In this document: one piece after another, positions 11,233 through 37,469 of the stretch
How the letters are laid out: the number at the start of each line of letters is the position of its first letter
Position numbering within the stretch: position 1 is the first letter of the stretch
NCBI GenBank assembly: GCA_964195005.1
Contig: CAXMOO010000059.1
Location: 1-38,085 of the forward strand
Direction: 5' to 3'
Origin: an uncultured Gammaproteobacteria bacterium
GTDB taxonomy: Bacteria > Actinomycetota > Acidimicrobiia > Spongiisociales > SHLN01
DNA length: 38,085 nt
Program-made: the position numbers and the translations under genes
The notes under the pieces: model-generated
What the model was told of the DNA's origin: nothing
Database searches by the model: none
What the model saw: only the letters and a program-made list of their open reading frames with translations

Positions 11233-11546
11233 GGTCCAGGTGCCGGATTGCCCAACTGCCGGGCAGGAACCATCAAGGCACGATAGGGCGTAGGCGGAAA
11301 CGACTCCCCGGGATTTGGAATCTGGTGGGGTCCTCCCATGGGGGATCGAGTCTCTCCGCCCACACCGGGACCAGCCGGGCACTTTGGAGTGGGCTCAACC
11401 GACATGCCGGGCCCACGGCAATCACCTCGATTCTCGGTAGTCCGGGGCTCTTGCGTATATTTCGGTCAGTGGACGGCAGGGGGGTCACTCCCCGGGGGGT
11501 TGTCCGCGCAGCTGGTCCCTTCCCCTGGTTAAAGCATGGAGAACTA

Positions 11547-13827: not shown

Positions 13828-13930
13828 ACCAGCCGGATACGCTGGCCAAGGCCCCCGCGGCGCTCTAGGCTCACATTTCGCGTTCTCAGGCCGATACCCG
13901 GACGGAACCGTCTAACGATTGACGTACCGC

Positions 13931-15403: not shown

Positions 15404-16631
15404 TTCCTTCGCTCTCCCGGTAGCGACCGTAGAGGCGTGAAAGATTCCTAGCCGGGTCCTGCCAGTAGTCATCGGGTTCGATGTCAATCCACTCGTAGCT
15501 GCCGGGAACCTCCCCCCGGTCGGCATCGGCGAACGCCGCTACGGACGAAACGGAAGGTTTGGGGCTTCCGTCGGCGCGCCACAGCCCAAAGAAACGTTCG
15601 TGGACCGCTTCGTCGAGCGGCGGATCGCTCCAGATGGCGGGCCGGTAGTCCGAGTAGCACCACAGCATGGCCCCCGCGCACCCGGCGCGTTGCAGTTCAA
15701 CCAATGCCCGATGCGTGTATGCGGCGGCAGCCTCCTCCTCGACAAGTGGGGAGCTGCTCTGTCGCAAGGCGCTCATGGCGCCCGGATCAGAGGGCCGGTA
15801 GGTGGGCAGGCCGAATTCTGAAAATAGGAGCTCACGACCGTCTCCCAACCAGCGGGTGACGTGGGCCAAGAACGGCAGCAGATGCTCATCCGTCGGGCCC
15901 TTGGCCCAGCCGGCGTAGATCGGATAGCCGTGCATGCAGAGGAAGTCGCAGAACTCGGAGGCTTCCGCCGGTCCGAGCTTGCGGTCCTCTTCCAGATCCT
16001 CCATGTGCAGGCCAACCGTGATGAGAACCGCCTGGTCGGCATTATGGATCGCATCTGTGATGCGACTCAGCCATGCCCGGGCGGACGACCGACTGGGCGG
16101 CACCACGCAGTTGGAATTCTCGTTGCCGAGATCCCACGCCCACAAGGCGTCGTGGCCGGAGAGCGCGGTGGCTGCCTCTCTCGCCAACAAAGCGTGAGCC
16201 CCGGTAATTGCAGTGTCTGTGTACCAGTTGCGCAATCCGGGGTTGGCGACGCGCCCGCCGGACATCACCCGGAAACGGCCGCCGCCTTCCGGCCCGCCCA
16301 CCGCCCACGGGGGGATCCAGTTGACGCCGCTCATGTGTCCCGTAAAGAGGGTCGGCATGATTACCAGGCCGGCCTGGTCCGCAAGATCCGCCACGGTGAC
16401 AAGGCGCTGGAGCAACCCGGCATTCACGGTTTCGGGGGCAGGCTGGAAATCCTCCCAGAGCAGCGACAACCTGACTGAGTCGAATCCGCTTGCCGCAATC
16501 CGGGCGAAGTCGGCGCCGACTTCGGCGCCGTCGAAGTCTGTCCACCAGCCCATCGCGGTGCGGGCCGGCCAATAGTTGACACCGAGTCGAAAGCTGTTGG
16601 ATTGATCGGGTGGTTTGGTGTCAGCTGGCAT
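15390..16631 (-). CDS. Clan GH-A glycoside hydrolase (GH5, beta-mannanase-like), cytoplasmic
   Basis: GVNYWP, FTGHMSG, WDLGNE (acid/base), HGYP and FSEFG (nucleophile). No signal peptide. Confidence 0.82.
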   Translation of the reverse strand: MPADTKPPDQSNSFRLGVNYWPARTAMGWWTDFDGAEVGADFARIAASGFDSVRLSLLWEDFQPAPETVNAGLLQRLVTVADLADQAGLVIMPTLFTGHMSGVNWIPPWAVGGPEGGGRFRVMSGGRVANPGLRNWYTDTAITGAHALLAREAATALSGHDALWAWDLGNENSNCVVPPSRSSARAWLSRITDAIHNADQAVLITVGLHMEDLEEDRKLGPAEASEFCDFLCMHGYPIYAGWAKGPTDEHLLPFLAHVTRWLGDGRELLFSEFGLPTYRPSDPGAMSALRQSSSPLVEEEAAAAYTHRALVELQRAGCAGAMLWCYSDYRPAIWSDPPLDEAVHERFFGLWRADGSPKPSVSSVAAFADADRGEVPGSYEWIDIEPDDYWQDPARNLSRLYGRYRESEGITSP

Positions 16632-17700
16632 CGTCTAGTTGGGTCCGCTTCATTGAATGTAGCTCTACAACCCTGTGATAAACCGCGATGTACTCCTCCA
16701 CCATTCGGTTCGAGTCGAATCGACTCTCGACTGACTTACGCACTGCCATCCGGTCGATGGTCTCGGCGGCGTGGACGGCCGCGACCGTTTCGCCGATGGA
16801 GCCCACGAGGTAGCCATTCTCACCCTGGCGGACAATTTCCGACATCGACCCTCGCCGGCGGGCGATGACCGGCGTTCCACAGGCCATCGCCTCGACCACG
16901 CTAAAGCCGAACGGTTCGTCGAAGTTGATGAGATGCAGGAGCGCCCGGGCTCCACCGAGCAAGTCGTCGCGGAGATCCGGGCCGACCGGACCGACGTACT
17001 TGATCCGATCTCCGTCCAGCTTGGGCTCTACGAGCCGCGCGAAATAGTCATCGTCCTGGATGATGCCCGCAATCGTCAACGGCATTCCTGCCTGTTGGGC
17101 TACCTCGATGGCCTCCGCTGTGCCCTTCTCGGGATGGATACGCCCGAAGAACAGCAGGTAGTCTCCCGTCCCCTGTCGCAAAACAAACTCCTGCATGTCG
17201 ATGCCATGGTGGATGGTGGCAATGTATTCGAGGTTCTCATGCCGGTCTGCTTCGCTGATCGCCACGTAGTAGCTGCGCTGGTTGTACTTCTCGAATACGG
17301 GCAAGATTCTCTCCGACGAGAATCCGTGAATTGTGGTGACGACCGGAGTGTCGACCAGGCTGCTGTAAGTGAGCGGTAGGTAATCGAAGCTGTTGTGGAT
17401 CACATCGAACGCTTCGGCTCGCTCGAACACCTCCGAGATATGCAGGCACTCCCAGACCTTCGGGTCCAATCCCGGGTCTTCGGAGTATCCACGGGGAGCC
17501 GTCCCTACTAGATGCGCTCCTGTGACCGAGTCGGCGGTGGCAAACAGAGTGACGTCGACACCCCGGGCCACCAGCCCTTCGGTCAGAAGGGACACGAACT
17601 GCTCCCACGGTCCATAGTGGCGCGGGGGCACTCGCCATGAGATCGGGGCAAGCAGTGCCACCCGGAGTTGCCTGTTTGACGGCGCCGCAGACGAAGTCAC
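16621..17700 (-). CDS. GT4-family glycosyltransferase
   Basis: Motifs VPPRHYGPWE, TTIHG, FFGRIHPEKG and EPFGFSVVEAMACGTPV. GTG at 17700 taken as the approximate start. Confidence 0.88.
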   Translation of the reverse strand: MTSSAAPSNRQLRVALLAPISWRVPPRHYGPWEQFVSLLTEGLVARGVDVTLFATADSVTGAHLVGTAPRGYSEDPGLDPKVWECLHISEVFERAEAFDVIHNSFDYLPLTYSSLVDTPVVTTIHGFSSERILPVFEKYNQRSYYVAISEADRHENLEYIATIHHGIDMQEFVLRQGTGDYLLFFGRIHPEKGTAEAIEVAQQAGMPLTIAGIIQDDDYFARLVEPKLDGDRIKYVGPVGPDLRDDLLGGARALLHLINFDEPFGFSVVEAMACGTPVIARRRGSMSEIVRQGENGYLVGSIGETVAAVHAAETIDRMAVRKSVESRFDSNRMVEEYIAVYHRVVELHSMKRTQLDDAS

Positions 17701-17927
17701 ACGGCGAGGGTAGCCCTGCCCTCGGAGCGCGGATGCGGAAGACGCGAACCTGGAAGCGCGTCCGGGCCGGCGGGTTGCGTTGCAGAGGCCCCAGGCCCTC
17801 TGAATCGCGCTGGCCCCCCAATCGCCACGCGCTGCCACCGGAGGCGATGCCTCGCGCCGATGGGAGTGGGACACCCGATCAGTAGCATCGGTTGTACCAA
17901 CGATTCTCTACCCGGGAGGAAACGTCG

Positions 17928-18310: not shown

Positions 18311-18332
18311 TGTCACACCGCACCGTTACCAT
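18311..18332 (+). promoter_or_regulatory. RecA-NDp/PafBC-like DNA-damage promoter of the nurA operon
   Basis: TGTCAC-N10-TACCAT, ending 8 nt before the nurA ATG. Confidence 0.7.
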
Positions 18333-18340
18333 CTCTTCCA

Positions 18341-19282
18341 ATGGCTCGCCTCTATGTCGAGGAATGGTCGCCGGAGTACGGTGCCTCGGTTGATACTGAT
18401 GAGTCGCTCGCGCCCAGCGAGGGTGAGGTCGATGTCACTGTTGAGCAGGCTTCGCCGTGGCATCCCGTCGACGGCGTCGATGACGGATTCCCGGCGATTG
18501 CATTTGTCGATGGGATCAGGCGGGTGGACGCCCGGCTGACCATCGATGATCCCGCGGTCGGGCCCACGCCCGGGATCTGTGGTTCCTTTGCCGCCGGTGC
18601 CGCGGTGTGGCGCAGGGAGCCGCTGGCGACCGACGTGGAGGCGGTCCGGGTGCAGCGGCTTGCCATCTTCACCGGCGGAGCCACCGCCGAGCTTCCCGAG
18701 CTGGGGTACGGCCTCAGCTACGAGATCGAATCGGTTGCTGAGTCCGATCCGGGCCTGCTCATTTCCCACTTTCACACGCAGATGCGCCGCACGGAGGCTG
18801 AAATCGCCCTCGAACTGGCGCGGTCCGGTTACTTCGTGGTCGCCGACGGCCCGATTTCCGAGCTGGCGGCGGAATCGGTGGTGGGGTATATCAAGAGTCA
18901 TCGGGTTTCCTATCTGCCGCAAGATGTGATGCCGATCATGGCCCGGCTCGAGCCCGGCCAGCGGACGCCGCTTTTTGGCATGCCGAGTTACAAGCGTTAC
19001 TCCTGGTACCAGCGATTGAGTCGTCCGGCCGGCGGCCACAGCTGGTCGGGAGTGGTCCGGTGTGAGGCACCGCAGTCTCTTGGCCTCGAACGAGCGGTGG
19101 TCCTGGCCAACCGCACAGCGGCACTGTTGCCCCGCTTCCGCTCTGAGCCGCACATCGATCCTCGCGCTCCGCAGAACCTGGTTCCGATCGGTGCGCTGGA
19201 ACGCCAGCTCCGGGCCCGGCTTGGCGATCGAGACCTGATCTACCGGGCTCTACGGGCCGCGACCATGGGCGTGCCGGTGTGA
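18341..19282 (+). CDS. nurA: NurA-family nuclease
   Basis: Motifs AFVDGIRRVDAR, VVADGP, GYIKSH and DPRAPQNLVPIGALE. Lies directly upstream of herA. Confidence 0.8.
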   Translation: MARLYVEEWSPEYGASVDTDESLAPSEGEVDVTVEQASPWHPVDGVDDGFPAIAFVDGIRRVDARLTIDDPAVGPTPGICGSFAAGAAVWRREPLATDVEAVRVQRLAIFTGGATAELPELGYGLSYEIESVAESDPGLLISHFHTQMRRTEAEIALELARSGYFVVADGPISELAAESVVGYIKSHRVSYLPQDVMPIMARLEPGQRTPLFGMPSYKRYSWYQRLSRPAGGHSWSGVVRCEAPQSLGLERAVVLANRTAALLPRFRSEPHIDPRAPQNLVPIGALERQLRARLGDRDLIYRALRAATMGVPV

Positions 19283-19316
19283 GGGCCATAATGGGCTCGC
19301 CCTACGCGCTGGAGGG

Positions 19317-21044
19317 ATGTTGGTGAAGAGCAAAAAGGGGGTCGGGCGTGTGCTCGGCACCCAGCACACTTCGACGCGTGAATTCCGCGTTGTCCTCGAG
19401 GACGACGAGTATCTGCAGCTCGACGACCTGGTTGTTGTCACCACCGGAGTGCCCCAGCAGGGCGAAGTGAAGACCTACGGCATCGTCACAGAAGTCGAGG
19501 CAATTTTCGAAGGTGCCACCTTCGAATCCGACACCCACCGAATAGCCGCAGAAGGCATTCTCCCCGCAGCCAAGGTGCGCTCAGCGCAGGTGGCGATCAC
19601 CCGGATCGACCCCGAGCTCTGGGTGTCGCCTGACCCGGGAGAGGTGGTCGAGCGCGCGACGGGAGCAGAACGGGATAAGGCGCTGTACAGGGACGAGATG
19701 GGACGAGCGCTGGCCATTGGCCTGGGTCGCGACGGCGAGCCGGTGTTTGTCGATCTCGACTTCTTTGACGGGCGCAAGGGCGGCCACATGTCGGTTTCCG
19801 GGATCAGTGGCGTGGCCACCAAGACCAGCTTCGCGTTGTTCTTCCTGCGCATGCTCACGGCGAAGCCGGAGGTGGTCGGCGAAGGCGCCGCCAACATGCG
19901 AGTGCTGGTTTTCAACGTCAAGGGAGAGGACCTCCTCTGGCTGGATAAGCACAACAAGGATTTCGACGAGACTGCTGCCAAGGGCTGGGATCGGCTGGGC
20001 GTCAAGCCGACCCCGTTCGAGTCGGTGGGGTTCTGGGCCCCGCCCCGCCCCAAATCGGGTGATGTGGTGGTCCCGGACATCAGCGGTCGTCAAGAAGGAG
20101 TCGCCGCCTTCGCCTGGACGCCTCGCGAGTTCGTCGATGAGGGGTTGCTGCGCTTCCTGTTCACCGACGCCTCTGACACCCGCAACCAGATACCTTTCGT
20201 TGAGGAACGGGTCGAGGCCCAGCTCAAGCGTTATGCAGTCGACGTGGCCGGCGAGCCCGGGGCAGTGGTTCTTCGTGATCCGGTCGAGGGTCACAAGCCG
20301 GGTGACGTTGTCACCCCGGGCCGGGGTGAGATGGTGATCCGGGACCTCAAGAGCCTGGCTGAGGCAATCGAGGAATTCGTCGACCCGGCCGACGACGAGC
20401 CAGACCAACGCTGGACCGGTCGAGTGCAACCGGGGACGGTTTCGGCATTCATGCGGCGGCTGCACGCCGCCACCAACCGTCTCGGACATCTGATCAGGTC
20501 GGGGGAGAGCCGACGCATCGACCGCTTGGCAGCTCAGGTGACTGTGGTGGGAATCCAATCCCTCCACGATCTCGGCCAGAGATTTGTTGTGGGTGCTCTT
20601 CTGGCTGAGACCTTTGCTGAAAAGGAGCGCAGCGGTCGGCGCTTCCCGTTGTCGGTGATCGTCCTCGACGAGCTCAACAAGTATGCGCCCCGCGATGGCA
20701 CCAGCCCCATCAAGGACATGCTGATCGATATTGCTCAAAGGGGCCGCTCTCTTGGCGTGCTCCTGGTGGGGGCTCAACAGACTGCCTCCCGCGTGGCGTC
20801 CGAGGTCATGGAAAACGCCGCTCTCAAGGTGGCGGGACGGCTTGATGCCGCTGAAGCCGAGCGGGCCGAATATGGCTGGATGCTCCCGTCCACCCGGGCT
20901 CGGGCCCGGCTCTTGAAGCCGGGGACGATGATTTTGAGCCAGCCGGCGATTCCGCTTCCCCTGGTGGTTGACTTCCCGTTCCCGCCCTGGGCCACACGCC
21001 GCGAAGAAGTCGTCGAGGAGGGCGACCCCTTCGAAGGGCTGTGA
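19317..21044 (+). CDS. herA: HerA-family ATPase/DNA translocase
   Basis: N-terminal HAS-barrel-like region, variant Walker A SGISGVATKTS, FNVKGEDL, Walker B IVLDELNKYAP and RGRSLGV..GAQQ. Confidence 0.85.
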   Translation: MLVKSKKGVGRVLGTQHTSTREFRVVLEDDEYLQLDDLVVVTTGVPQQGEVKTYGIVTEVEAIFEGATFESDTHRIAAEGILPAAKVRSAQVAITRIDPELWVSPDPGEVVERATGAERDKALYRDEMGRALAIGLGRDGEPVFVDLDFFDGRKGGHMSVSGISGVATKTSFALFFLRMLTAKPEVVGEGAANMRVLVFNVKGEDLLWLDKHNKDFDETAAKGWDRLGVKPTPFESVGFWAPPRPKSGDVVVPDISGRQEGVAAFAWTPREFVDEGLLRFLFTDASDTRNQIPFVEERVEAQLKRYAVDVAGEPGAVVLRDPVEGHKPGDVVTPGRGEMVIRDLKSLAEAIEEFVDPADDEPDQRWTGRVQPGTVSAFMRRLHAATNRLGHLIRSGESRRIDRLAAQVTVVGIQSLHDLGQRFVVGALLAETFAEKERSGRRFPLSVIVLDELNKYAPRDGTSPIKDMLIDIAQRGRSLGVLLVGAQQTASRVASEVMENAALKVAGRLDAAEAERAEYGWMLPSTRARARLLKPGTMILSQPAIPLPLVVDFPFPPWATRREEVVEEGDPFEGL

Positions 21045-22213
21045 TGCGGATCCTCCACACGTCTGACTGGCACGTCGGAAAGAGGCTCGGACGCTATGAC
21101 CGCCTTGAAGAAGTGGTCGCCACCATCTCCGAGGTCGCCGGGATTGCCACCTCCGAAAGCGTCGACCTGGTGGTGCACTCGGGCGACCTGTTCGATCGGC
21201 CGTTCCCGCCCATCGACGCCCTACGGGTGGCGCTCGACGGTCTGGTCAGTCTGACCGGAGAGGGCTCGCGTCCGGTCGTAGTGGTCGCAGGCAACCACGA
21301 CTCCGGTGACCTGTTCGAAGCTTTGGCCCCTTTCCTCGCCGGGTGGGGCATCTATCTGATTGGCTGGATCAAGCCCCCGGCCGACGGCGGGGTCTTCGAG
21401 CTCGACACCGCGTCAGGTCGTGCAGTCGTGGCCGGCTTGCCGTTCCTGCGGGAAGGCCATGTGGTCGACTTCATGGCCGATACCGATCGGTGGTATGGGC
21501 AGTATGCAGAGCGGATCCGCCGCCTCACGGAGGTTTATTCGGATCACCTGGTCGAGACGGCGGGGACCGACGCGGTGTCGCTGCTCGTCGCTCACTTCAT
21601 GGTTACGGGAGCAAGGGTGGGCGGCCATGGCGCACCCCGCGGCGAACGGGAGCTCCACATGGGAGAGGCGTACGCCGCCGGTGAGGGGGCGATCCCCGCC
21701 TCGCTGAGCTATGTCGCCATGGGTCACATCCACGCTCCCCAGCCCGTGCCAGGGGCCAACGTACCCGCCGAATACGCCGGCTCCCTTCTCGAACTCGACT
21801 TCGGCGAGGCCGGTGAGCAGAAGCGGGTGGTAATCGTCGATGCCGAGCCGGGGCGTCCAGCGAGGGTCACAAGCGTGCCACTGAGTACCGGCCGGCGGTT
21901 GGTGCGAGCCGCCGGCACCTGGGACGAGCTGGCGGACCGCACCGACCTGGACGATTTCTATCTGGATCTAGCCGTGGACACGGAAGGACCCGAGCCGGGG
22001 CTCGGCGCCCAGGCGGTGGAGCGCTTTCCATACCTCGTCAAGGTGACGGCCGTCTACGAACGGCCCGAATTGGAAGAGGTGTCGCGTGGCCAGCTTCCCT
22101 GGGACCAGGTGTATGCCGAGTTTCGTGAACGCGAACGGGGTGAGCCTGCTTCCGAGGAGCTGCTGGCGACCTTTCGCGAGGTGTCGGACGAGGTGGAACA
22201 TGCGACCCCTTGA
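21041..22213 (+). CDS. sbcD: SbcD/Mre11-family nuclease
   Basis: Phosphoesterase motifs HTSDWHVG, GDLFD, GNHD, AHF and MGHIH. GTGA overlap with herA. Confidence 0.93.
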   Translation: MMRILHTSDWHVGKRLGRYDRLEEVVATISEVAGIATSESVDLVVHSGDLFDRPFPPIDALRVALDGLVSLTGEGSRPVVVVAGNHDSGDLFEALAPFLAGWGIYLIGWIKPPADGGVFELDTASGRAVVAGLPFLREGHVVDFMADTDRWYGQYAERIRRLTEVYSDHLVETAGTDAVSLLVAHFMVTGARVGGHGAPRGERELHMGEAYAAGEGAIPASLSYVAMGHIHAPQPVPGANVPAEYAGSLLELDFGEAGEQKRVVIVDAEPGRPARVTSVPLSTGRRLVRAAGTWDELADRTDLDDFYLDLAVDTEGPEPGLGAQAVERFPYLVKVTAVYERPELEEVSRGQLPWDQVYAEFRERERGEPASEELLATFREVSDEVEHATP

Positions 22214-24713
22214 GCTGACCCTGAAAGGCTTCCAGTCGTACGCCGACCAACAAACCTTCGATTTCCGGGATCGGCGGTTGGTAGGAATAGTCGGCCCGAT
22301 CGGCGCCGGCAAGTCGTCCTTGCTGGATGGTATCGCCTTCGCCCTATACGGTCGGACTCCCCGAGCCGGCAAGTCGACTAGAGGGCTCATCAATCAGCGC
22401 CAGGGCTCGGCCCACGTCGAGCTGTGGTTCCAGGTAGAAGGTGAGACCTGGCGAGCCGTGCGAGCCCTGCGGCGCAAGGGACAGAGCGCCCACAACCTGT
22501 ACCGGTACGCCGGTGATGAGCCGGGGGCCGAGCGACTTGAGGAATTTACCGGAGAGAAGCTGGTGACCGCCAGGGTATCCGAGTTGCTCGGCCTCGATTT
22601 CGAAGGTTTCAGTCGGTCGGTTTTTCTTGCGCAGAACCGCTTTGCCGACTTCCTGGAGGCAACGGCCAGTCAGCGCGATGTGGTTCTCAAAGGAGTATTT
22701 GCGCTCGACCGGCTCGATCGCATGGAGGAGGTTGCCAAAACTCGTCGCGATGGCCTTCGTGCCGAACTGGCGGATCTCGAGCGGTTGCGCGGTGAGGTCG
22801 AGGCAGATCGGTCTCCTCTGAAAGAGGCTCGGGCGGCTCTCAAAAAGGCCACTACGACGCTTGCTGAGATCGAGTCACATCGCGAAAACGCACGCCGGCT
22901 CGAGGTGGCGGCTGCCGAGGCGCTCGGTGATGGCGAGCGGGCTCAGTCGCGTCTCGCTGAGCTCTCCGGCCTGGCGGCGCAGCTCCCGGCCAGGGACAAG
23001 ACAGGCGTGCTACTCGATCGGGCTGCAGCCGGGAGCAAAGGCCAGGCCGAGGCCGAGGCGGCATTGGCCGACGCCACCAAAGGCCTGGAGGTCGCCCGTC
23101 GGCATCAGGCGCAAACGGTCAAGAAGACGGGTGGGCCGGCGGCTCTGGAGCGAGTTGGTGGCCGGCTGGAACAACTGGCCGCTCTCGAGAAGCGAGCCAA
23201 AGACGCAGCCGCCGGCTCGAAAACAGCTCGAGCCGGCCTGGAGCGAGCGCAGAAGGATGCGGCCAAAGCGGAAAAGGATCTCGCATCCAGCTTGGAGGCG
23301 CAGACGGTCGCGGCCGTCGCAGTGGAGTCGGCAGCTGAAGCCACCGCCACCGCAGAGGAGGCATGGCACAGGGCAACTCATGAAGCCGGCGCGCTGGCTC
23401 TTCGCGAGGGCCTAGTGGTCGGAGAGCCCTGTCCCGTCTGCGAGCAGACGGTTGTGGTGCCGCCGGGAGCCAAGAAAGCACCGAAAGCCGACCAGGTCGA
23501 CCGTGCCCTGGACCGGGCACGGAGGACGCTCGGCAAAGCGCAAGCCGTCAACACCGATGCCGCCACGGCTCACGCCACTGCGCTGGCCAGGGTGGAATCG
23601 ACCCACAAAGCCCACCTGGCGGCTGAACAGCACGATAAGGAAGCGCTTTCGGCCGAGGAGTCGCTGGCCGCCGAACGTCAAGGCATTTCCGATCAGCTCG
23701 AAAAGGCTGTCGGGAAGGAGAAGCCGTCTCAGGTCCTGGGACGATGGCGCTCCCAGTTGGACGAGGCCGATGCCCTCGTAGAGCTAAAAGTCGCCGCCGA
23801 GAACGCGACGAGGGATCACCTGGCAACAGAGCAGGCGGCACGTGCCGGGATGGGCTCAGAGTTAGTCCAGCTTGCCACCACGGTTGCCACTCTGGCCGGG
23901 CAGCTCGGCGGCGAGATCCGACCCGCGGCCGACGCTGCCGAGTTGTCCGACTCGCTCGATCAGCTCCGCAAGCTGTGGGAAGAGCGTTCGGCGGCGGCCC
24001 AGGATGAGCACAGGGCTTTTATCAAGCGAAGAGAAGAGGCTGAAACAGCAGTTGCCGGGATCCTCCAGCAGCTCGGCCTGACGCCTGGAATAACGTTGGC
24101 CGACGCGATCAAGAATGCCGGTGCCAATCAGGCGCGTCTCCAGGAGAGGGTCGAGACCCTGGAGGGTCGAGCGGAGCGGCTCGCCGAGGCGGAGAAGGGC
24201 TCGGCCGAAACGGTACAGGCGCTCAACCTCTACACGACACTTGCAGACGATCTGCTGCCCAGCCGCTTTCTCAAGTCTGTCCTCGATGAGGAGCGACGAT
24301 CGTTGGCCGCATTGGGGAGCGAGCACTTCGCTCGCATGACCAGGGGCCGCTATCGGTTCACGGAAGACGGCGCCTTCAACGTCATGGATCTCAGCGCCGC
24401 CGGGGTTGAGCGGAAGGCCGACACTCTATCGGGTGGAGAATCCTTCATTGCCTCGCTCGGATTGGCCCTGGCGCTTGCCGAGATGGTGACTCGTACCGGA
24501 GGCCGACTTGACGCTTTCTTCCTCGATGAGGGCTTCGGCTCCCTCGATCCCGAGCATCTCGAGTTGGCCATGGAGGGCATCGAGGCACTGGTCGGTGGCG
24601 ACCGGCTGGTAGTAGTCGTGAGTCACGTTCCCCAACTGCGCGAAAGGGTGGAAGACCTAATCGAGCTTGATAAGGACCCAACCACGGGGGATACCAGGGT
24701 CGTCCGGTCGTGA
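22200..24713 (+). CDS. sbcC: SbcC/Rad50 SMC-like ATPase
   Basis: ATG at 22200 ([14 protein letters not shown]), Walker [10 protein letters not shown], coiled coil with CPVC zinc hook, LSGGE signature and [10 protein letters not shown]. Confidence 0.93.
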
Positions 24714-25168
24714 TCCGGCCTCTCCTCAGGGGTGTGATAGTGGATGAGGAGCGAGTGTTGCTGACTCTGAGTCGTTTCGATTACGAGGTGTACTTGCTTC
24801 CGGGAGGAGAGCCACGAGCCGGCGAGTCGTCCTCGACCGCCCTCAGTCGCTATGTTCAAGAACAGACCGGGTACGAGGTAGCCGCTCATGAGCTCCTGTG
24901 GATCCGGGATCACACGACATCCAATCATGGGCTCTTGCTTAACCCACCGGGGTCGTATGTGGTCGAGCTCTTCTACAGATGCACCTTGAGCGGAGCGGCG
25001 GTAACGGTCGCGCCCGGCGGTGGGCCTCAACAGGTGGCCGTCGAGTGGGTCCCGGGCGACCGCCTTCCCAGCGTGGAGTTTCTGCCTAAGAGTTTGGTGG
25101 AACCGTTGGTGGCATATCTGGCAGATCGGAGCGTGATCCCGCCTGTGTATGTCGTCGAAGGCGCTTAG
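24710..25168 (+). CDS. Nudix-fold protein with a degenerate Nudix box
   Basis: LPGGEPRAGESSSTALSRYVQEQTGY. GTGA overlap with the sbcC stop. Confidence 0.75.
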   Translation: MIRPLLRGVIVDEERVLLTLSRFDYEVYLLPGGEPRAGESSSTALSRYVQEQTGYEVAAHELLWIRDHTTSNHGLLLNPPGSYVVELFYRCTLSGAAVTVAPGGGPQQVAVEWVPGDRLPSVEFLPKSLVEPLVAYLADRSVIPPVYVVEGA

Positions 25169-25228: not shown

Positions 25229-26314
25229 ATGGGAATCAAAGTCGGCATCGTCGGATTGCCCAACGTTGGCAAGTCCACACTCTTCAACGCTCTGACCGGA
25301 GCCGGGATAGCCGCGGAGAACTATCCGTTCACGACCGTCGAGCCCAATATCGGAGTGGCCTTCGTTCCCGACCGCCGGCTCCCCGTTCTGGCCGAGATCG
25401 TGGGTCCCGAGGATGTCGTGCCCACCGCTGTCGAATTTGTCGATATCGCCGGGCTGGTGGCGGGAGCGTCCGAAGGAGAGGGCCTCGGCAACAAGTTCCT
25501 ATCGCACATTCGCGAGACGGATGCTATTGCCCACGTTGTCCGTTGTTTCGCCGACGACGATGTCGCACACGTTGAGGTGGACGTCGATCCGCTACGAGAC
25601 ATCGAGACAATAAATACCGAGCTGGCCCTTGCCGACCTCGGGTCCGTTGAACGAGCAATTGAGCGGGCGGGTCAGAAGGCCAAATCGGGGGACAAGGGCG
25701 CCCAGCAGCGGCTAGACACTCTGACGAAGCTGCACGCCCACATCGATGCAGGTAATCCGGTCCGTACGCTGGACCTGTCCCCGGACGAAGCCCTCGTCGC
25801 CAGAGACCTATTTCTGTTGACCTTGAAGCCCATCATGTACGTGGCCAACGTTGCTGAGGACAGGGATCAGAGATTCGTACCGGCGATGGCGAATCAGGCT
25901 GGAGCCGAGAGAGCTCCGCTGGTGGTGATAAGTGCAGCCGTGGAGGACGAGATCGTGGCGCTCGACGATGCCGACAAACACGAGTTCCTGGCCGAGCTCG
26001 GCGAGACCGAGCCGGGCCTGAATCGCGTTATCCGGGCGGCGTACATCCTCCTGGGATTGAACACCTTCTTTACTTTGGGGCCCAAAGAGGTACGGGCGTG
26101 GCCATTCCGACATGGCGCCACTGCACGCGAGGCAGCCGGCTCGATCCACACCGATTTTGAGCGGGGTTTCATTCGGGCCGAGGTGATCTCCTATGAGGAC
26201 TTTGTTGAGCACGGTGGGGAGAAGGGGGCAAAAGATGCCGGTCTCTGGCGCCTGGAGGGAAAGGACTATCTCGTCGCCGAAGGCGACGTGATCTACTTCC
26301 GCTTCAATCTGTGA
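25229..26314 (+). CDS. ychF: Ribosome-binding ATPase YchF
   Basis: Motifs GIVGLPNVGKSTLFNALT, NYPFTT, DIAGLV, GEGLGNKFL, IHTDFERGFIRAE and GDVIYFRFN. Confidence 0.97.
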   Translation: MGIKVGIVGLPNVGKSTLFNALTGAGIAAENYPFTTVEPNIGVAFVPDRRLPVLAEIVGPEDVVPTAVEFVDIAGLVAGASEGEGLGNKFLSHIRETDAIAHVVRCFADDDVAHVEVDVDPLRDIETINTELALADLGSVERAIERAGQKAKSGDKGAQQRLDTLTKLHAHIDAGNPVRTLDLSPDEALVARDLFLLTLKPIMYVANVAEDRDQRFVPAMANQAGAERAPLVVISAAVEDEIVALDDADKHEFLAELGETEPGLNRVIRAAYILLGLNTFFTLGPKEVRAWPFRHGATAREAAGSIHTDFERGFIRAEVISYEDFVEHGGEKGAKDAGLWRLEGKDYLVAEGDVIYFRFNL

Positions 26315-28142: not shown

Positions 28143-28724
28143 CTAGGTGGCTCGTCTCAGGTCGGCGACGAACTTGGGGGCCGTTATCAGGAGCACACCC
28201 AACCCGAGTGCTACCAGGGCGACTCCGGTGTCGATGCCCCAGCCAACCGGCAAGTCGAGTGCCACCCAGGCGATGGTGGCGGCGGTGTAGAACGCCAGGC
28301 CCAACAAGGCCCCCTTGGCAGCTGATCCCATCAGCCGGGCCGTGCCTGCCATGAACGGGACCGCGACCACCAGGCCGAGGGGCCAAGCCGCCATCGTCAC
28401 TCCTCCCGCAACCCCGAGTCCCTTGCCGCCTCGAAACCGAAACCAGGGGTTGAGTATCTGCCCGCTGATGGCCGCCAGCCCGCCCGCCACCGCGCCTCCG
28501 CTGCCGACCAGTGCTAGGCCCAGCTGCACGGCGAGGAACCCTTTGAGGATGTCCACCAGCAAGACGGCTCCGGCCAGTTTCTTGCCCCCAACGACAAGGG
28601 CGTTGGCAGTGCCGGGGTTGCCCGTTCCCTCTGTCCGCAGGTTGTGGCCGACCGCCAGCGCCAGCAGATGAGCCGAGGGGATGGCCCCGAGGCCGAACCC
28701 GATGAGGAGTGCGGCGGCGGTCAC
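28143..28724 (-). CDS. plsY: PlsY-like membrane protein (divergent)
   Basis: Motifs GAIPS, GTGNPGTAN, DILKG and FRGGKG. GTGA overlap with the adnB stop. Confidence 0.7.
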   Translation of the reverse strand: MTAAALLIGFGLGAIPSAHLLALAVGHNLRTEGTGNPGTANALVVGGKKLAGAVLLVDILKGFLAVQLGLALVGSGGAVAGGLAAISGQILNPWFRFRGGKGLGVAGGVTMAAWPLGLVVAVPFMAGTARLMGSAAKGALLGLAFYTAATIAWVALDLPVGWGIDTGVALVALGLGVLLITAPKFVADLRRAT

Positions 28725-31700
28725 TCGAGCGCCTGGTTATCGGCGAGCCATTGCCGGCCCGGCTCGCAGAATTTGACGAAGTCACAATGACGACAGGCTT
28801 CCGACGGCTCGGGCTCGAAGCGTTCAGTGTTGATGTCTTCGAGAATCGTCGTGAGCCGTGACCGCGCCGTGTCCAGCCAACCCGTATCCACGGTCGTCGA
28901 CTCCTCTTCCAGTCCGTTCCCGAAGTAGGCGAAGGTAACTGCCAGTGAGTCGGGGCGGGACCCAAGGCTTCCCTCATCGGCAGCCACTCCGTACGCCTGC
29001 AACTGCACCTGACGGGCCGGGTCGGTCCGGTTACGCCCACTCTTGAAGTCCACGATCTCCCAGAAGTGGTCCTTCGTGTAGATGGCGTCGATCCTGCCTC
29101 TTATCCGGTTGTCGCCCATCTGCATCACAAACGGTCGTTCCACCCATGTCGGTTTGGTGGTAGCGAACCGTGACGCCTGAAAGGTCTCATATGAATCGGG
29201 GGAGGGCTCCTGCTCGTCCGGCACAAAATCATATGTGTCCTCATCGGCCACTTCGAGGGGTATGACTCCACGGTTGTGGAGCTCGATGCGGCGGTGCAGG
29301 TCGATGCCCGCCCGGAGCCAGGGTGCCGGCCGCCTGGGCAGGCGATCCACGTCGCTCCAGTAGAAGCGCTTAGGGCAGGTCGCATAGGTAACCAACGAGG
29401 ACACGGAGATCACGGTTGGGCCGTCCGGCTGTGCATCCTCGGGCTCGGGGAGCCCGCTAAGGATCAGTGATAGCTGTTCCACCTGGGCATCGTACGCCGT
29501 CGTGTCTGCGGCAGCTTCCCGGGGCCACTGGGGATCGGCCATCGTATCCAGCAGAGCTGCCTGCCATCCCTGGCCGAAGTGAGGGTCGGGCGCTACCACG
29601 CGAGGCGGGGCAGCTGAGGAGTCCGGCCTGGCGCCGGCATCTTCGCAATCGGCCAGGCGAGAGCTGATATCCAGATCATCGATTATCGAAAACAGGTCGC
29701 TGGGGCGTTTGGCTCTCTTCTGGCCGTACCAATGAGCTCCCGACACAACGAGGCGCTTCTTGGCCCTGGTCACTGCCACGTATGCCGTGCGCCATTCCTG
29801 ATCAGTGTGGAGGTCCCTGAGAGCGTCCTTGCGGGCGTCCGCGTCATCGGGATCGAGGGTGGGAAGGTGTTGGGCATCTAGCCGGGCGGTGAACGGCAGG
29901 CTGGCAGGCCGGGCAAACGGGTCGTCGAATGCCCGAGGACGGCTTGGGAACGTGTCGTTGACGACCGCCGGGAGGTACACAGAGTCCCATTCGAGCCCCT
30001 TGGCGCGGTGGGCTGTGATGAGCGTTACGGCGTCGCTGCTGGCGGCTGGAGCCAGGTCGAGCTCCTCGGCCGCCCGCTCGTCCACTAGCAGCGCCAGGTA
30101 TTCGAGGAAGGCGGTCAGGGAGGGGCGGCCTTCAAGCGGGCTCCACGCTTCGGCCAGATCGAGGAAGCGATAAAGGTTGAGGCGGGCACTGCGGCTGGCG
30201 CTTTCCTCGAGTGAATCGATCTCGATCCACACGCCCAAGCGATCGAGCACGCGGCGGCAAAGCTCGACCAGTGAGACGCCTTGCGCCTCTTCTACAAGGG
30301 TCGAGTGGAGAGAGCGAAACCGTTCCAATGCCGTGGTGGCTTCGGGGCGGGGGAGCTCTGTAACCTCCAGGATCGCCTCGAGAAGCGTAAATCCCGGGAC
30401 GTCGCCTTCATCGGAGGTCGTGCCATCCTGCTCCCGCACCCACTCCGCCGGGGGTACCAGGTCGCCGAACCCGAGCCCGAAGTGAGGCCCGAGCAAAATC
30501 CGCAACAGTGCCGGGCCATCGCTGGGATCTTCGAGAATCCGCAGCCACGACCACAGGTCGGTGACTTCGGGAACGTGAAGCAGGCCACCGAGGCTCACTA
30601 CCTGGATCGGCACACCCGCCTCAGCCAGTACCTGGCGGATCAGCGGGATCTGGGCGTTCTTTCGGAAAATCAATGCGATATCGCGCCACTCCAGACCGGC
30701 CTCATGCGCCGAAATGATCTCGGCTGCCAGCCAGTCGGCCTCCTCACCGGCGGTGCGAAACCAGGCGGTCGCCACTTCTCCCTCGCCTGCGGTGTCGAGC
30801 GCCCGTAAGGGCTCGCGGTTTGCTCGCCGCGAGATCTGCTCCGCGACGGTGTTGGCGACCGTGACGATGTGATGACCCGATCGGCGGTTGAGTGACAGCT
30901 GGAGAGTGGGGCTTGGAGTGCCGCCCGGCCCGGGGAAGTGCTCGGGGAATCTCGCGAAGTTCTCGAGTGAGGCCCCACGCCACTCGTAGATGGTCTGGTC
31001 GGCGTCTCCCACAGCCGTGACCGGAAAGCCGTCGCCGAAGAGGGAGCTTAAAAGCTCGCGCTGGGCCGGGTTGGTGTCCTGGTACTCGTCGAGGAGGACC
31101 ACACCGAATCGCCCCCGTACTGCCGCGGCGACGGCGGGTTGCTCCACAACCAGCCGGTGGGCGAGGGCAATGAGGTCGCTGAAGTCGATCACGCCGAGCT
31201 GGTGCTTGAGCTTGCGGTAACGGGTGAGGGCCGCGAGCATCTCCGCTCGCCTCTCTCCGACGTCTCCTTCCCCGCCCGGCACCGATTCAGGGTCTCGAAG
31301 GTTATCGGCCAACTGCCCGGCCAGGGCAGCGAGCTCCTCTACTCGCTGTCCAGGGGCTGAGAGGTCGAGATGCTCGTAGGACCCGCCGCCCAACGCATCT
31401 CGCAAGAGCTGACGTACGAACCCCGGCGTCACCAGGCGGGCGGTGCGCTCAACGCCGACGTAGGCGCCGAATTCGAGAAGCAGATTGGCGGCGAAACCGT
31501 GATAGGTCGTCACCTCGACGTCGCCGGTATCCGTCAACTGTCCGGCCAGAGCAGCCAGCTCCTCGATCCGCTGGCGAAGCTCTTCCGAGGCCTTGTTGGT
31601 AAAGGTCACACCGAGCGCGCTTGCCACCTGGCCCGTGCCGAGGAGGTTGACGAGTCGCAGCGCCATCGTTGTCGTCTTGCCCGTGCCGGCCCCGGCGTTG

Positions 31701-31768
31701 ACCCGCAGGGGTCCCAACGGATGGTCGATCACCTGCTGCTGCTCGGGAGAAGGGTCGAATGTCATCAC
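28721..31768 (-). CDS. adnB: AdnB-like UvrD helicase fused to a PD-(D/E)XK nuclease
   Basis: AGAGTGKT, TFTNKA, DEYQD, GDADQTIYEWRGA, TAHRAKGLEW and YVAVTRA; nuclease motif GRIDA..DFKSG; CPKR...CRHCDFVKFC. Confidence 0.85.
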   Translation of the reverse strand: MMTFDPSPEQQQVIDHPLGPLRVNAGAGTGKTTTMALRLVNLLGTGQVASALGVTFTNKASEELRQRIEELAALAGQLTDTGDVEVTTYHGFAANLLLEFGAYVGVERTARLVTPGFVRQLLRDALGGGSYEHLDLSAPGQRVEELAALAGQLADNLRDPESVPGGEGDVGERRAEMLAALTRYRKLKHQLGVIDFSDLIALAHRLVVEQPAVAAAVRGRFGVVLLDEYQDTNPAQRELLSSLFGDGFPVTAVGDADQTIYEWRGASLENFARFPEHFPGPGGTPSPTLQLSLNRRSGHHIVTVANTVAEQISRRANREPLRALDTAGEGEVATAWFRTAGEEADWLAAEIISAHEAGLEWRDIALIFRKNAQIPLIRQVLAEAGVPIQVVSLGGLLHVPEVTDLWSWLRILEDPSDGPALLRILLGPHFGLGFGDLVPPAEWVREQDGTTSDEGDVPGFTLLEAILEVTELPRPEATTALERFRSLHSTLVEEAQGVSLVELCRRVLDRLGVWIEIDSLEESASRSARLNLYRFLDLAEAWSPLEGRPSLTAFLEYLALLVDERAAEELDLAPAASSDAVTLITAHRAKGLEWDSVYLPAVVNDTFPSRPRAFDDPFARPASLPFTARLDAQHLPTLDPDDADARKDALRDLHTDQEWRTAYVAVTRAKKRLVVSGAHWYGQKRAKRPSDLFSIIDDLDISSRLADCEDAGARPDSSAAPPRVVAPDPHFGQGWQAALLDTMADPQWPREAAADTTAYDAQVEQLSLILSGLPEPEDAQPDGPTVISVSSLVTYATCPKRFYWSDVDRLPRRPAPWLRAGIDLHRRIELHNRGVIPLEVADEDTYDFVPDEQEPSPDSYETFQASRFATTKPTWVERPFVMQMGDNRIRGRIDAIYTKDHFWEIVDFKSGRNRTDPARQVQLQAYGVAADEGSLGSRPDSLAVTFAYFGNGLEEESTTVDTGWLDTARSRLTTILEDINTERFEPEPSEACRHCDFVKFCEPGRQWLADNQALE

Positions 31769-34719
31769 GACTGGTATGCCATGTTTCCTTCAGGGAAAGC
31801 GGGGCAGACGAGCCTTACCGGGCAGCGGCCGCAGTGTTCGTTGGGGCGAGCAGGCCAATCGTCACTGTTGATGCCTTCTGCGACCGCCCGCAGTCTCTGC
31901 TCCACCCCTTCCAGGTTTTTCGGATCGAAGGGGATCATCCGCAACGACTTGCGGTCCGTCATCGCCACCATCCACAGTTCCCCGGCGTCCGGCAGCCCGT
32001 GACCCGTGAGCCCCGGGTCCTGACGGGCCGCGAGGATATAAAAGCCAAGCTGGAGGGATTCGGCGCCGTCGGCGTCAGTGACATTTCTCCCACCCGTCTT
32101 GTAGTCGACAATTCGCACCACTCCATCACCGGCCTCAATGCGATCCGCTCGCCCGAACCAGGCGACCTCGTCGATATTGAGACTCAGCGGTCGTTCGAGA
32201 TCAATGATCGAAGCCGGGCGGTCCGGCCAGTGTTTGTAAACGAACTCGAGTACCCGCTCGGCGCGTCGGCGCCATGGCTCGGACCAGGGAGACGGCCCGA
32301 ATCGGGTCGGATCCCATCGAGCCTCGAGGTGAGCCTGGGCCCGAGCTTCCGTCCCGTGCGGGAGACCGTTCTCGTGGGCGTCCCGTTCGGTTTGCTCGAG
32401 CACATCGTGGATCAGCGAGCCGAACTCCAGATGGGAGCTGGTTCCTTCCCGCACTCTCAGCCGCCGTTCGATCGCATACCGGCGCGGGCAGGTCTCGTAG
32501 GAATCCGCTTGACTCGGCGAGAGGCGCAGCACGGCGGGTTTCAACCCGCCCTCGGGCCCGGGCGGTTGGATGCCTGCGAACAGGGCTGGTTCGCGGAGGC
32601 CGTACTGTGGTCCGGTGGCCAGCGCGTGCAGGGCCGCCAGTCGATGCGGGGCTGTTACCTCGGGATCGGCGGCGATTCGGCGAAGCCAGGCTTCGGCTTG
32701 AGCCTGAGTAACCGGATGGTCGCCGCGGTCCGGTGGCGGCACGGGCCCCTCGGGGGCTACCCGGTGCAGGAAAGGGCTCGGTGCGCCAAGACCTTCGTCG
32801 ATCCCGCCGGCAGTAGCCGTCCAAATCACCTGCCGGTGAGCTCTCGTCATGGCGGTGTATGCGAGCCGCGTCTCCTCCTGCAGGCGAAACCGGCGGTAAG
32901 CGGCCGGGTCGGAGGGAAGGTGGGGAGACAAATGCCGGGTGCCGATCAGCGACTCCCGGGGGCGCAGGTCGGGGAAGACTCCGTCCACTGCATCAGCAAT
33001 GAAGACAACCTCGAACTCCAGCCCCTTCGACTGGTGCAGAGTCGTGATGGTTAGCCGGTCGGTGCCCTGATCCCGGAAATCGAGGAGTGGTTGAGCTTCG
33101 AAGCTTTCCTCGTCGGACCATCTCACGAAGTCGGCGAGGCTGGCGGCGCGATCTCGCTCGAAAAGCCTCGACAAGACCTGCGAGAGCGAGCTCCAGGCTG
33201 CCCGTTCCTCGGTGCGCCGCTGGTCAACGACGAGGTCGGCAAACTGGGGGAGTGTTTCCCACAACTTCCAGAAACCGTCGGCGGCAGGGGCGCTTGTGGC
33301 CCAGGTGGAGTCGGCGATGAGCTCACCCAGGCCTGCCGCGTCGGGGACATCCGCAACGATGACCTCCGGCCAGGCCCGCGGCGGGGCACCCCGGCTTCGC
33401 TCCAACCCCCGCACCTGTCCGATCGGTAGGCGAAACAGTGGTCCCAACAGGAGCCGGCGCAGTGCCAGATCAGCCTCACGGCCGCCGGACGTGGCGGCGG
33501 TGACGCAGTCAAAGACTGCGCGTACCGCGGGATGATCACTGAGTCGCGAATCCGGCTGCACGTGGGGTATGCCAAGGCGCTCCAGTGCCCGCGAGAGAGT
33601 TGGAAGAAACCGACGCTTGGAGCGGACGAATACGGCCATGTCTCGGAAGGGAAGCCCTGCGAGATGGAGGCCCTGTATCTCGGCCGCAACCCATTCCGCC
33701 TCTTCGCTTGACTGCTGAAACAGCACGGCTTCTACCGAGCCCACTCCGGACGCTGGGGTTACCGGGCCGGCGGCTCCGGGTAATTCGAGGCCGGAGGTGA
33801 GGCGGGCGGCGGCGTCGAGTATCGCTGCGGGGGTCCGGAACGAGGTTGTGAGGACCAGGCGCGATGCCGGCCTGCCATTTTGCGAGAACCTCTCGGGGAA
33901 TTGTTCCACATTGGCCAGGTCGGTCCCGCGAAAGCTGTAAATCGACTGATACGGATCTGCCGCCACTGTGAGGTTGGCTCCGCCGCTTACCAGGAGCTCC
34001 AGCAGGCGGGCTTGAGCGATTGTCGTGTCCTGATACTCGTCGACGAGCACGTAGCGAGCCCCTGCGGTCACTCTGTCCAATGTGGGGGCGTGGCCCAAAG
34101 CCTGTACCGCCGCGGCCTGCACCGTGCCGTAATCGATGCGGTTGCGTTCCTGCAGCCGGCGTCGGTAGCTGCGCAAGAATTCTGGTAGGGCCCGCCAATC
34201 GTCGCGGGCAAAGTCGGCTATCTCCTCGGGCCCAATGAGAAGCTCATTGCAGCGGAGTAGGAAGTCGGAAATTTCCTCGGCCAGCGTGCTGGTTTGTAGC
34301 AAGCCCCGGAACAGGACCGGCCACTGTGCCGGGTTCTCGGCAGCGAGGAGCGAACGGATAAGGAGTACGTATTCGAGCGATGTGAGCAAAGTGGGCATTC
34401 GCTCCCAGCCGAGGCTGTCTCCCCCGTGAGTTTCCAGCAGACGGAAGGCATATGAGTGGAACGTGGAAGTGTCCATCGCAGGTGTCGAACTCTGGGCGCC
34501 CTCCTCGAGTCGCCTTCGCAAGTCGGCGGATCCCCGTCGCGAGAAGCTCAACAACAGGATCTCGTCGGGGAGGGCGATCCCCTCAGCAACTAGATAGAGG
34601 GCTCGCCGAACCAAAAACTCGGTCTTGCCGGTTCCCGGACCTCCCACCACAAGTTGAGGTCCGTCGGTTTCGGCAGTCGCCGCCTCCCAATCGCCGGGGT
34701 TTACCCGGAGCTCAGCCAT
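31765..34719 (-). CDS. adnA: AdnA-like UvrD helicase fused to a PD-(D/E)XK nuclease
   Basis: ATG at 34719 (MAELRVNP), GGPGTGKT, DEYQD, DPYQSIYSFRG, TLHQSKGLEF and YTAMTRA; GRADRI..DYKTG; CPRR...CGRCPVRLVC. Confidence 0.85.
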   Translation of the reverse strand: MAELRVNPGDWEAATAETDGPQLVVGGPGTGKTEFLVRRALYLVAEGIALPDEILLLSFSRRGSADLRRRLEEGAQSSTPAMDTSTFHSYAFRLLETHGGDSLGWERMPTLLTSLEYVLLIRSLLAAENPAQWPVLFRGLLQTSTLAEEISDFLLRCNELLIGPEEIADFARDDWRALPEFLRSYRRRLQERNRIDYGTVQAAAVQALGHAPTLDRVTAGARYVLVDEYQDTTIAQARLLELLVSGGANLTVAADPYQSIYSFRGTDLANVEQFPERFSQNGRPASRLVLTTSFRTPAAILDAAARLTSGLELPGAAGPVTPASGVGSVEAVLFQQSSEEAEWVAAEIQGLHLAGLPFRDMAVFVRSKRRFLPTLSRALERLGIPHVQPDSRLSDHPAVRAVFDCVTAATSGGREADLALRRLLLGPLFRLPIGQVRGLERSRGAPPRAWPEVIVADVPDAAGLGELIADSTWATSAPAADGFWKLWETLPQFADLVVDQRRTEERAAWSSLSQVLSRLFERDRAASLADFVRWSDEESFEAQPLLDFRDQGTDRLTITTLHQSKGLEFEVVFIADAVDGVFPDLRPRESLIGTRHLSPHLPSDPAAYRRFRLQEETRLAYTAMTRAHRQVIWTATAGGIDEGLGAPSPFLHRVAPEGPVPPPDRGDHPVTQAQAEAWLRRIAADPEVTAPHRLAALHALATGPQYGLREPALFAGIQPPGPEGGLKPAVLRLSPSQADSYETCPRRYAIERRLRVREGTSSHLEFGSLIHDVLEQTERDAHENGLPHGTEARAQAHLEARWDPTRFGPSPWSEPWRRRAERVLEFVYKHWPDRPASIIDLERPLSLNIDEVAWFGRADRIEAGDGVVRIVDYKTGGRNVTDADGAESLQLGFYILAARQDPGLTGHGLPDAGELWMVAMTDRKSLRMIPFDPKNLEGVEQRLRAVAEGINSDDWPARPNEHCGRCPVRLVCPAFPEGNMAYQS

Positions 34720-34726
34720 ACCCGAC

Positions 34727-34748
34727 ACGGTACCCGCCGCTGGCGACA
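34727..34748 (-). promoter_or_regulatory. RecA-NDp/PafBC-like promoter of adnAB
   Basis: Minus strand reads TGTCGC-N10-TACCGT, ending 7 nt before the adnA ATG. Confidence 0.72.
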
Positions 34749-37372: not shown

Positions 37373-37379
37373 GAGCTGC

Positions 37380-37401
37380 ACTATAAGGGGGGAGAGTGAC
37401 A
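37380..37401 (-). promoter_or_regulatory. RecA-NDp/PafBC-like promoter of the RecB-family exonuclease
   Basis: Minus strand reads TGTCAC-N10-TATAGT, ending 7 nt before ATG 37372. Confidence 0.72.
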
Positions 37402-37469
37402 CGAATGTAATTCCCGACCGGCGCCGCGAAACTTACTTTTATGGCGCGAAAACAAACCATCGTTCTGGT

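Follow-up and report, generated by a model that had tools for sequence, protein, structure and literature searches.

A four-gene nurA-herA-sbcD-sbcC cassette behind a DNA-damage-type promoter motif in an actinobacterial order

What might a complete nurA-herA-sbcD-sbcC set do in an actinobacterial genome whose AdnAB-like gene pair stands in tandem 3.5 kb away? The question is raised by contig CAXMOO010000059.1 (assembly GCA_964195005.1; GTDB order Spongiisociales of the Actinomycetota), whose full 38,085 nucleotides are called the window here. Its genes for a NurA nuclease, a HerA ATPase, an Mre11-like SbcD and a Rad50-like SbcC form the cassette under study, and a reading made from sequence alone had taken them for an archaeal-style end-resection operon. 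The comparisons below point, with somewhat more confidence than doubt, to a damage-induced end-processing unit acting beside AdnAB. The parts and their layout were already known; regulatory and evolutionary evidence is added here.

The linkage of the four genes is not due to chance, because the set stands together in 53 of 60 Actinomycetota loci (49 of the 52 with sufficient flank) and in 64 of the best 80 of at least 589 named loci (49 of the 50 with sufficient flank). The 60 were drawn from 67 HerA-carrying Actinomycetota loci; the two sets partly overlap, kin are not independent, and phylum names are the depositors' labels throughout. Among the 53 complete loci, 33 have the order nurA-herA-sbcD-sbcC and 20 the order herA-sbcD-sbcC-nurA, and the named loci with the full set include records labelled Chloroflexota, Gemmatimonadota, Acidobacteriota and Gammaproteobacteria. 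The closest HerA proteins among the best 80 belong to records labelled Acidimicrobiia (up to 83% identical), which makes it likely that the host is a deep-branching actinobacterium and not an actinomycete in the strict sense; a phage collection searched with HerA gave two distant matches (22-27% identical). Within the order, nurA was found in 38 of 41 genomes, one copy each (a tally that includes G000 and the unpublished G028); of 301 genomes sampled from the phylum, 67 have this HerA (a tally that includes the unpublished G041, G086 and G157). Two loci, L051 and L054 (genomes G090 and G133), hold herA with neither nurA nor sbcCD in 17.7 kb, and G047, of the same genus, has the full cassette amid shared flanks. 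In the nurA-last loci L055, L058, L077, L259 and L263, insertions of 2.6-7 kb part herA from sbcD.

This survey of Actinomycetota neighbourhoods bears out the four-gene clustering seen in the sequence-only reading. The rarity it had attached to a bacterial layout is not borne out, given the counts in the order and the phylum and the publication of such a cluster for Oceanithermus profundus (PMC5448004). The same counts contradict two published statements, namely that bacterial nurA lacks stable synteny with the other three genes (a 2026 review, PMC13748450) and that bacterial NurA-HerA is confined to few bacteria (a 2023 paper, PMC9960219).

Linkage may also be read more sparingly. Two independent machines could share one damage promoter and travel together only by adjacency: SbcCD would cut hairpins or collapsed forks, and HerA-NurA would trim or degrade ends alone, possibly limiting recombination as in Deinococcus. 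NurA-HerA of Deinococcus and Thermus is described without adjacent sbcCD (PMC5448004, PMC9960219). Consistent with this, herA lacks the other three genes within the DNA examined in 2 of 60 loci, nurA-herA lacks sbcCD in one fully flanked locus among the best 80 of at least 589 named loci, and in a number of nurA-last loci insertions of several kb lie between herA and sbcD. The set nevertheless survives the change of order between nurA-first and nurA-last, and it is also found under the labels of at least four further phyla. In the order, nurA is missing from three genomes, 93-99% complete, and none of these gave an sbcD orthologue (herA and sbcC were not searched there); no second sbcCD was found elsewhere in the window's own genome, which is 84% complete. 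Two independent machines are judged unlikely.

The cassette is likely switched on by DNA damage, because its promoter motif is the same as that of the genome's DNA-repair genes; the suggestion also leans on analogy with the mycobacterial PafBC regulon. The site upstream of nurA (Table 1) has the form of a published PafBC motif variant (PMC8151990). The window has three matches. This number by itself is not beyond chance (9 of 100 shuffles), but each match ends 7-8 nt short of the start codon (ATG) of a gene for DNA processing, namely nurA, adnA or a PD-(D/E)XK nuclease gene. Across the genome, TGTC sites with a 12-nt spacer number 46, against 18-35 for other spacers, and those standing 5-9 nt before a long open reading frame (ORF) number 12, against 1-5 for eight other spacers. 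By NCBIfam, the genes behind genomic sites include radA, dnaG, dnaX, ruvC and genes for an Lhr-type helicase and a YifB ATPase, with recA and sigH further downstream of motif sites. Six of the 15 motif-downstream proteins compared gave no NCBIfam match at E 1e-12, one of these being the PafC control, and some sites stand before unrelated genes. AdnAB, RecA, RuvC and SigH are listed in the PafBC regulon in a review (PMC8223512). Tandem WYL genes, one with HTH_PafC, lie on contig C33, and a PafC-like match was found in 58 of 60 carriers.

Among relatives, the motif precedes whichever gene leads the cassette, nurA or herA. Its strict form is found upstream of 58 of 122 leading genes and of 10 of 364 internal ones. 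A relaxed form (T or C first), picked after these strict counts had been seen, precedes 47 of 54 leading genes in the Actinomycetota loci (internal genes, 11 of 160) and 46 of 53 in the named actinobacterial loci (internal genes, 4 of 161); in loci with another or no phylum label it does so in 3 of 14. Neighbouring spacers of 10, 11, 13 or 14 nt yield no first gene in those Actinomycetota loci and at most one over the sets compared, and the motif stands before the first gene in all 13 same-family relatives (13/13). It was not found before the cassette in the Streptomyces plasmid NZ_CP134205.1, the cyanobacterial plasmid AP018315.1 or Nonomuraea gerenzanensis. A role on DNA ends, as first proposed for these genes, gains backing from a promoter motif of the DNA-damage type. 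In nurA-last loci the strict motif also precedes sbcD in 7 of 25.

The layout of the locus (Table 1) agrees with what had been read from the sequence: co-oriented genes with a 34-nt gap (19283-19316, between nurA and herA) followed by overlapping junctions. All five ORFs, the Nudix-fold gene included, are uninterrupted; the sbcD start overlaps the herA stop, sbcD and sbcC overlap by 14 nt, and sbcC meets the Nudix gene in a GTGA overlap. A longer sbcC frame from 22086, present in the ORF list, was rejected: homologues align from 22200. To judge from the overlaps and the single upstream motif, the cassette would form one transcript. No terminator-like site was found on the + strand, a sigma-70 promoter scan found none (1.3 expected), and three RNA runs contained 5-6% of the locus words, on short contigs only. 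The guanine-cytosine (GC) content of the four genes is 0.61-0.66 and that of third codon positions (GC3) 0.69-0.77. Recent acquisition was rejected, since GC and GC3 resemble those of neighbouring genes and the chromosomal slot is family-wide.

Table 1. Positions in the window of the cassette, its upstream motif and the genes on its downstream side
Feature	Coordinates	Strand	Description
PafBC/RecA-NDp-type motif	18311..18332	+	TGTCAC-N10-TA-N3-T; ends 8 nt before the nurA ATG; predicted leaderless transcript
nurA	18341..19282	+	313 aa; bacterial-type NurA nuclease, RNase H-like fold
herA	19317..21044	+	575 aa; Deinococcus-type HerA ATPase/translocase
sbcD	21041..22213	+	Mre11-like phosphoesterase, 389-390 aa; start at GTG 21041 or ATG 21044
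sbcC	22200..24713	+	Rad50-like ATPase, 837 aa; ATG start
Nudix-fold gene	24710..25168	+	152 aa; Pfam NUDIX match
ychF	25229..26314	+	TIGR00092 over cut-off; outside the cassette, marks the chromosomal slot
adnB-like gene	28721..31768	-	UvrD helicase with C-terminal PD-(D/E)XK nuclease; Pfam UvrD-helicase, UvrD_C, PDDEXK_1
adnA-like gene	31765..34719	-	UvrD helicase-nuclease by Pfam; PafBC-type motif 34727-34748 ending 7 nt before the ATG

Judged by their matches, the four proteins are bacterial in kind, because SbcD and SbcC score higher on bacterial models and NurA and HerA match Deinococcus. The identity of the latter two rests on PDB sequence matches and fold, since Pfam and NCBIfam give no match. 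NurA matches D. radiodurans NurA of 7F6D at E 8e-19 in a PDB search, with Thermotoga maritima TM1739 likewise matched. An AlphaFold model built on a 54-sequence alignment (predicted local distance difference test, pLDDT, 91.6) finds by Foldseek the NurA of 7F6D (E 1.4e-18, template-modelling (TM) score 0.74), TM1739 (E 2e-14) and Sulfolobus solfataricus NurA (E 2.7e-5, TM 0.49). An RNase H-like NurA fold, whose absence at the nurA position had been set beforehand as a refutation, is thus present. The catalytic-site residues D57, E152, D169, K185 and R275 are invariant in 54 of 54 orthologues, as are DG motifs I and II in full (D57-G58 and D169-G170). A review calls bacterial NurA motifs degenerate and describes an archaeal C-terminal motif III (LxxAH...); the window NurA translation has no AH dipeptide (PMC13748450).

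HerA matches the D. radiodurans HerA of 7F6D at E 4e-123, and no archaeal HerA chain was matched by it at E 1 in the PDB search. Its K169 and T170 (Walker A), D205 (the ASCE acidic residue) and D451/E452 (Walker B) are kept in 60 of 60 orthologues, and the pore arginines R459 and R516 in 57 of 60. The confirmation of NurA and HerA/DUF87 by hidden Markov models that had been proposed for this locus was not obtained, neither window protein matching a Pfam family at E 0.001 or 0.05. Pfam NurA (PF09376) does not match the window protein at E 0.05 and weakly matches 32 of 54 aligned orthologues (best E 7.8e-10); DUF87, the HerA central domain, matches none of 60 HerA proteins, the window's included; the HAS-barrel gives a weak match in 4 of 60 HerA orthologues and none for the window HerA; and NCBIfam matches neither window NurA nor window HerA.

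SbcD scores 140 bits on TIGR00619 (cut-off 78), and bacterial models give it 108-179 bits, compared with 38-61 for archaeal Mre11 models; its metal ligands are kept in 56-57 of 57 orthologues. SbcC exceeds the Pfam thresholds for AAA_23, SMC_N and SbcC_Walker_B, and its best NCBIfam match is SbcC. On the bacterial model TIGR00618 it scores 219 bits, below the cut-off of 478.5, and on the archaeal model 77. Its Walker A (32-39), zinc hook CPVC (411-414), signature LSGGE (743) and Walker B (776) are present in 49-51 of 52 orthologues. The gene identities assigned from sequence, Nudix included, are borne out by PDB, fold, TIGR00619 and Pfam, and the four-gene set is complete with all catalytic motifs intact. 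As a statement of ancestry, however, "archaeal-style" is not supported: every part lies nearer to bacterial references in model scores, PDB and Foldseek comparisons, and an archaeal origin of the parts was rejected on those scores, without a tree that included archaeal sequences.

The inheritance of the four genes was compared in 45 genomes that hold all five markers, the four cassette proteins and RpoB. Between any two of the four proteins, pairwise identities give Spearman correlations of 0.57-0.84, and between each of them and RpoB only 0.24-0.26; among supported splits (23-27), the four protein trees show 0-4 conflicts with each other and 16-20 with RpoB. The coupling of the four genes asserted from sequence is in this way backed by congruent gene trees. 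Three versions of the cassette can be told apart by HerA: version A, that of the window (63-80% identical), version B, nurA-first (about 50%), and version C, nurA-last (46-50%). Members of the order carry A or C, and forcing the HerA proteins of the order together costs 505 log-likelihood units (p 3.5e-8 in the approximately unbiased (AU) test), so that their monophyly is rejected; this test used 29 of 60 rows and an LG+G4 quick tree, and was chosen after the tree-conflict result had been seen.

The versions share chromosomal slots. In the order, ychF adjoins the cassette in 10 of 21 loci with version A and in 13 of 15 with version C; many of the A loci stop at a contig edge, and in one C locus ychF is upstream and divergent. 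The same aldolase and wax-ester-synthase genes stand next to all three versions (A, B and C) in family f19. Two versions in one genome were not found among 41 genomes of the order or 301 of the phylum. The simplest reading of these sequence patterns is that versions were swapped in place at shared slots; an ancient duplication with differential loss, a less simple course, could also have produced them. The cassette likely works as one unit, because its four genes stay linked in relatives and seem to be exchanged as a whole.

Replacement of this kind also suits a role against foreign DNA. The cassette might destroy incoming linear or broken DNA of phages or plasmids: SbcCD would sense and open ends, HerA-NurA would degrade both strands, the damage promoter would act as trigger, and the versions would represent escape from phage inhibitors. 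This possibility, considered rather unlikely, draws on the three HerA versions of about 50% identity, never two to a genome and in slots common in three lineages, on the rejected monophyly of HerA within its own order, and on a proposed antiviral role of HerA-NurA (PMC12977600). Of the 11 loci that are patchy or come from the plasmid collection, two are set in defence clusters, namely the cassette of genome G316, between Azaca zacAB and pglW, and that of the Streptomyces plasmid NZ_CP134205.1, beside Wadjet II; a third locus adjoins a lone DNA methyltransferase gene. Two further carriers of the full cassette are Nonomuraea gerenzanensis and a cyanobacterial conjugative plasmid, AP018315.1. On NZ_CP134205.1 (411754-431385, locus L271) the cassette is divergent from the Wadjet II genes and an ImmA/IrrE-type peptidase gene, followed by a restriction-methyltransferase-like protein.

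Opposed to this are its near-core presence in the order (38 of 41 genomes), its housekeeping slot and a promoter motif common to recA and ruvC. The four proteins give only weak, general-domain matches in PADLOC; the window neighbours are housekeeping genes, with a PADLOC match only to a general nuclease domain; and six core loci scanned held no defence genes, one general kinase match aside. The scan covered 105 of 141 composition-filtered flanking ORFs, without two herA-only loci and some edge ORFs, and eight ORFs from two plasmid records. In the plasmid collection, only 5 of 72,556 records match, one of them an 11.9-Mb replicon, and clear defence settings are few, two of the 11 sporadic loci or three if the lone methyltransferase counts. 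The anti-phage or anti-plasmid role floated by the sequence-only reading therefore finds no support at this locus and some in sporadic carriers. A blended possibility, doubtful at present, is a cassette of the repair regulon that also serves as an end-degrading system against phages or plasmids: damage-inducible, in three mutually exclusive versions of about 50% identity in deep-branching Actinomycetota, replaced at fixed slots like restriction systems, with version-specific contacts between SbcCD and HerA-NurA.

Under the preferred reading, of a damage-induced end-processing unit, SbcCD would open blocked or hairpin DNA ends and, by analogy with archaea, hand them to HerA-NurA. The HerA ring, assumed to be the HerA6-NurA2 assembly of 7F6D, would pump the freed duplex through NurA, and NurA would trim it toward a RecA substrate, presumably with a 3'-tail as outcome. 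The four proteins may in this way resect DNA as one machine.

Several points weigh against this reading, beginning with the two limits given above, the chance level of the three motif matches in the window and the choice of the relaxed motif with the strict counts in view. Adjacent genes give congruent trees regardless of contact between their products, and co-transfer does not show one machine. With AdnAB present, resection is already covered. Genomes with a single version each, at a slot that the versions share, and sporadic copies by Wadjet II, Azaca and PglW resemble the pattern of defence loci. In D. radiodurans, deletion of nurA-herA is reported to have raised resistance to ultraviolet (UV) light and mitomycin C about 10-fold, and the authors doubt that NurA-HerA resects efficiently in vivo (PMC9960219). 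HerA-NurA of Thermococcus kodakarensis cuts both strands and is argued not to resect (PMC12977600).

Among known systems, the closest in layout is nurA-hepA(herA)-sbcD-sbcC of O. profundus: the four genes stand there in the same order, and the SbcCD encoded after herA is of bacterial type (Blesa et al. 2017, PMC5448004). That cluster was published as recruitment in a single genus, whereas the present cassette is near-core in an actinobacterial order and has a PafBC-type motif, AdnAB-like neighbours and three versions. D. radiodurans NurA-HerA provides the closest solved structures of both proteins (7F6D, 7WRW, 7WRX; PMC9960219). Equivalents of its NurA D53, K201 and R309 (the numbering offset of the tagged chain being counted by hand) and of its HerA K175, T176, D220, D487, E488, R495 and R552, residues whose roles were established in Deinococcus, are present here. 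There, nurA-herA is a two-gene operon in a host described as having neither RecBCD nor AddAB and as reliant on RecJ-RecQ; here, the pair is linked to sbcCD, AdnAB-like genes are present, and recJ was not found in the 84% complete genome.

The archaeal herA-mre11-rad50-nurA operon of Sulfolobus unites the same four activities in one cluster, and the nurA-last version of the relatives follows that listing order (PMC4351679, PMC2288612). In the window, by contrast, the proteins are bacterial-type and nurA leads the set; for S. islandicus these genes are essential, whereas they are missing from many actinobacterial genomes searched. The mycobacterial PafBC regulon offers the same promoter motif, pafBC-like genes and the companions recA, ruvC, adnAB and sigH (PMC8223512, PMC8151990). 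The Sir2-HerA and HerA-DUF4297 anti-phage systems likewise join a HerA ring to an enzyme partner; their HerA proteins, however, match the window HerA at E 0.03-0.3 only, and neither a Sir2 or DUF4297 partner nor a defence island is found here. A literature search found no paper linking NurA, HerA and PafBC and none on this cluster in Actinomycetota; older papers possibly describing bacterial clusters leave an earlier mention possible.

The locus bears on a current dispute, since HerA-NurA as a resection enzyme for recombination or as a destroyer of foreign DNA was under debate in 2026 (PMC12977600). In Sulfolobus the need for Mre11-Rad50 is said to be hard to test, all four genes being essential (PMC4351679). 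A full set in bacteria with AdnAB-like genes makes deletion and mixing experiments feasible, because there are named carriers (N. gerenzanensis, the Streptomyces plasmid and the cyanobacterial plasmid) and relatives without the cassette.

The genes at 28721-34719 are presumably adnA and adnB, names that we take from their architecture and gene order. An AdnB-like match (E 1e-77 or better) occurs in 47 of 63 herA carriers by hand count, the remaining 16 giving a PcrA-level match only or none. The contrast with AdnAB-using actinobacteria that had been implied for this operon is not supported, and a role of the cassette as a replacement for AdnAB was rejected: AdnAB-like genes coexist with it.

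The Nudix gene, taken at first for an operon member, proves to be a lineage-limited passenger. Of 36 loci from relatives in the order, 6 have it, and these 6 belong to the window's own family; on account of this restriction it was rejected as a fifth component of the cassette. Its Nudix box reads ALSRYVQEQTGY here and is near-identical in G001, compared with RETREETGY in a sister genus; the metal-binding glutamates (RE..EE) look lost in this genus.

Further genes may belong to the damage regulon. The stand-alone PD-(D/E)XK nuclease gene at 36572-37402 (- strand), with its PafBC-type motif at 37380-37401, 7 nt before the ATG, is a candidate third member within 19 kb. Elsewhere in the genome, a 408-aa protein (G000:C129:301-1527) has a well-placed PafBC-type motif, matches nothing in NCBIfam or Pfam at the thresholds applied, and is likewise a candidate. 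At the contig ends of C7, C180 and C77, several related truncated genes carry the motif, the C77 copy matching DUF222.

Upstream of nurA, glycosyltransferase, GH130 and GH5-like genes occupy 11325-17874, a placement shared only with the same-genus genome G001. Farther upstream, 1534-3648 and 3766-5799 (- strand) hold tandem MFS/Atg22-like transporter genes of about 700 aa, which exceed the usual MFS length.

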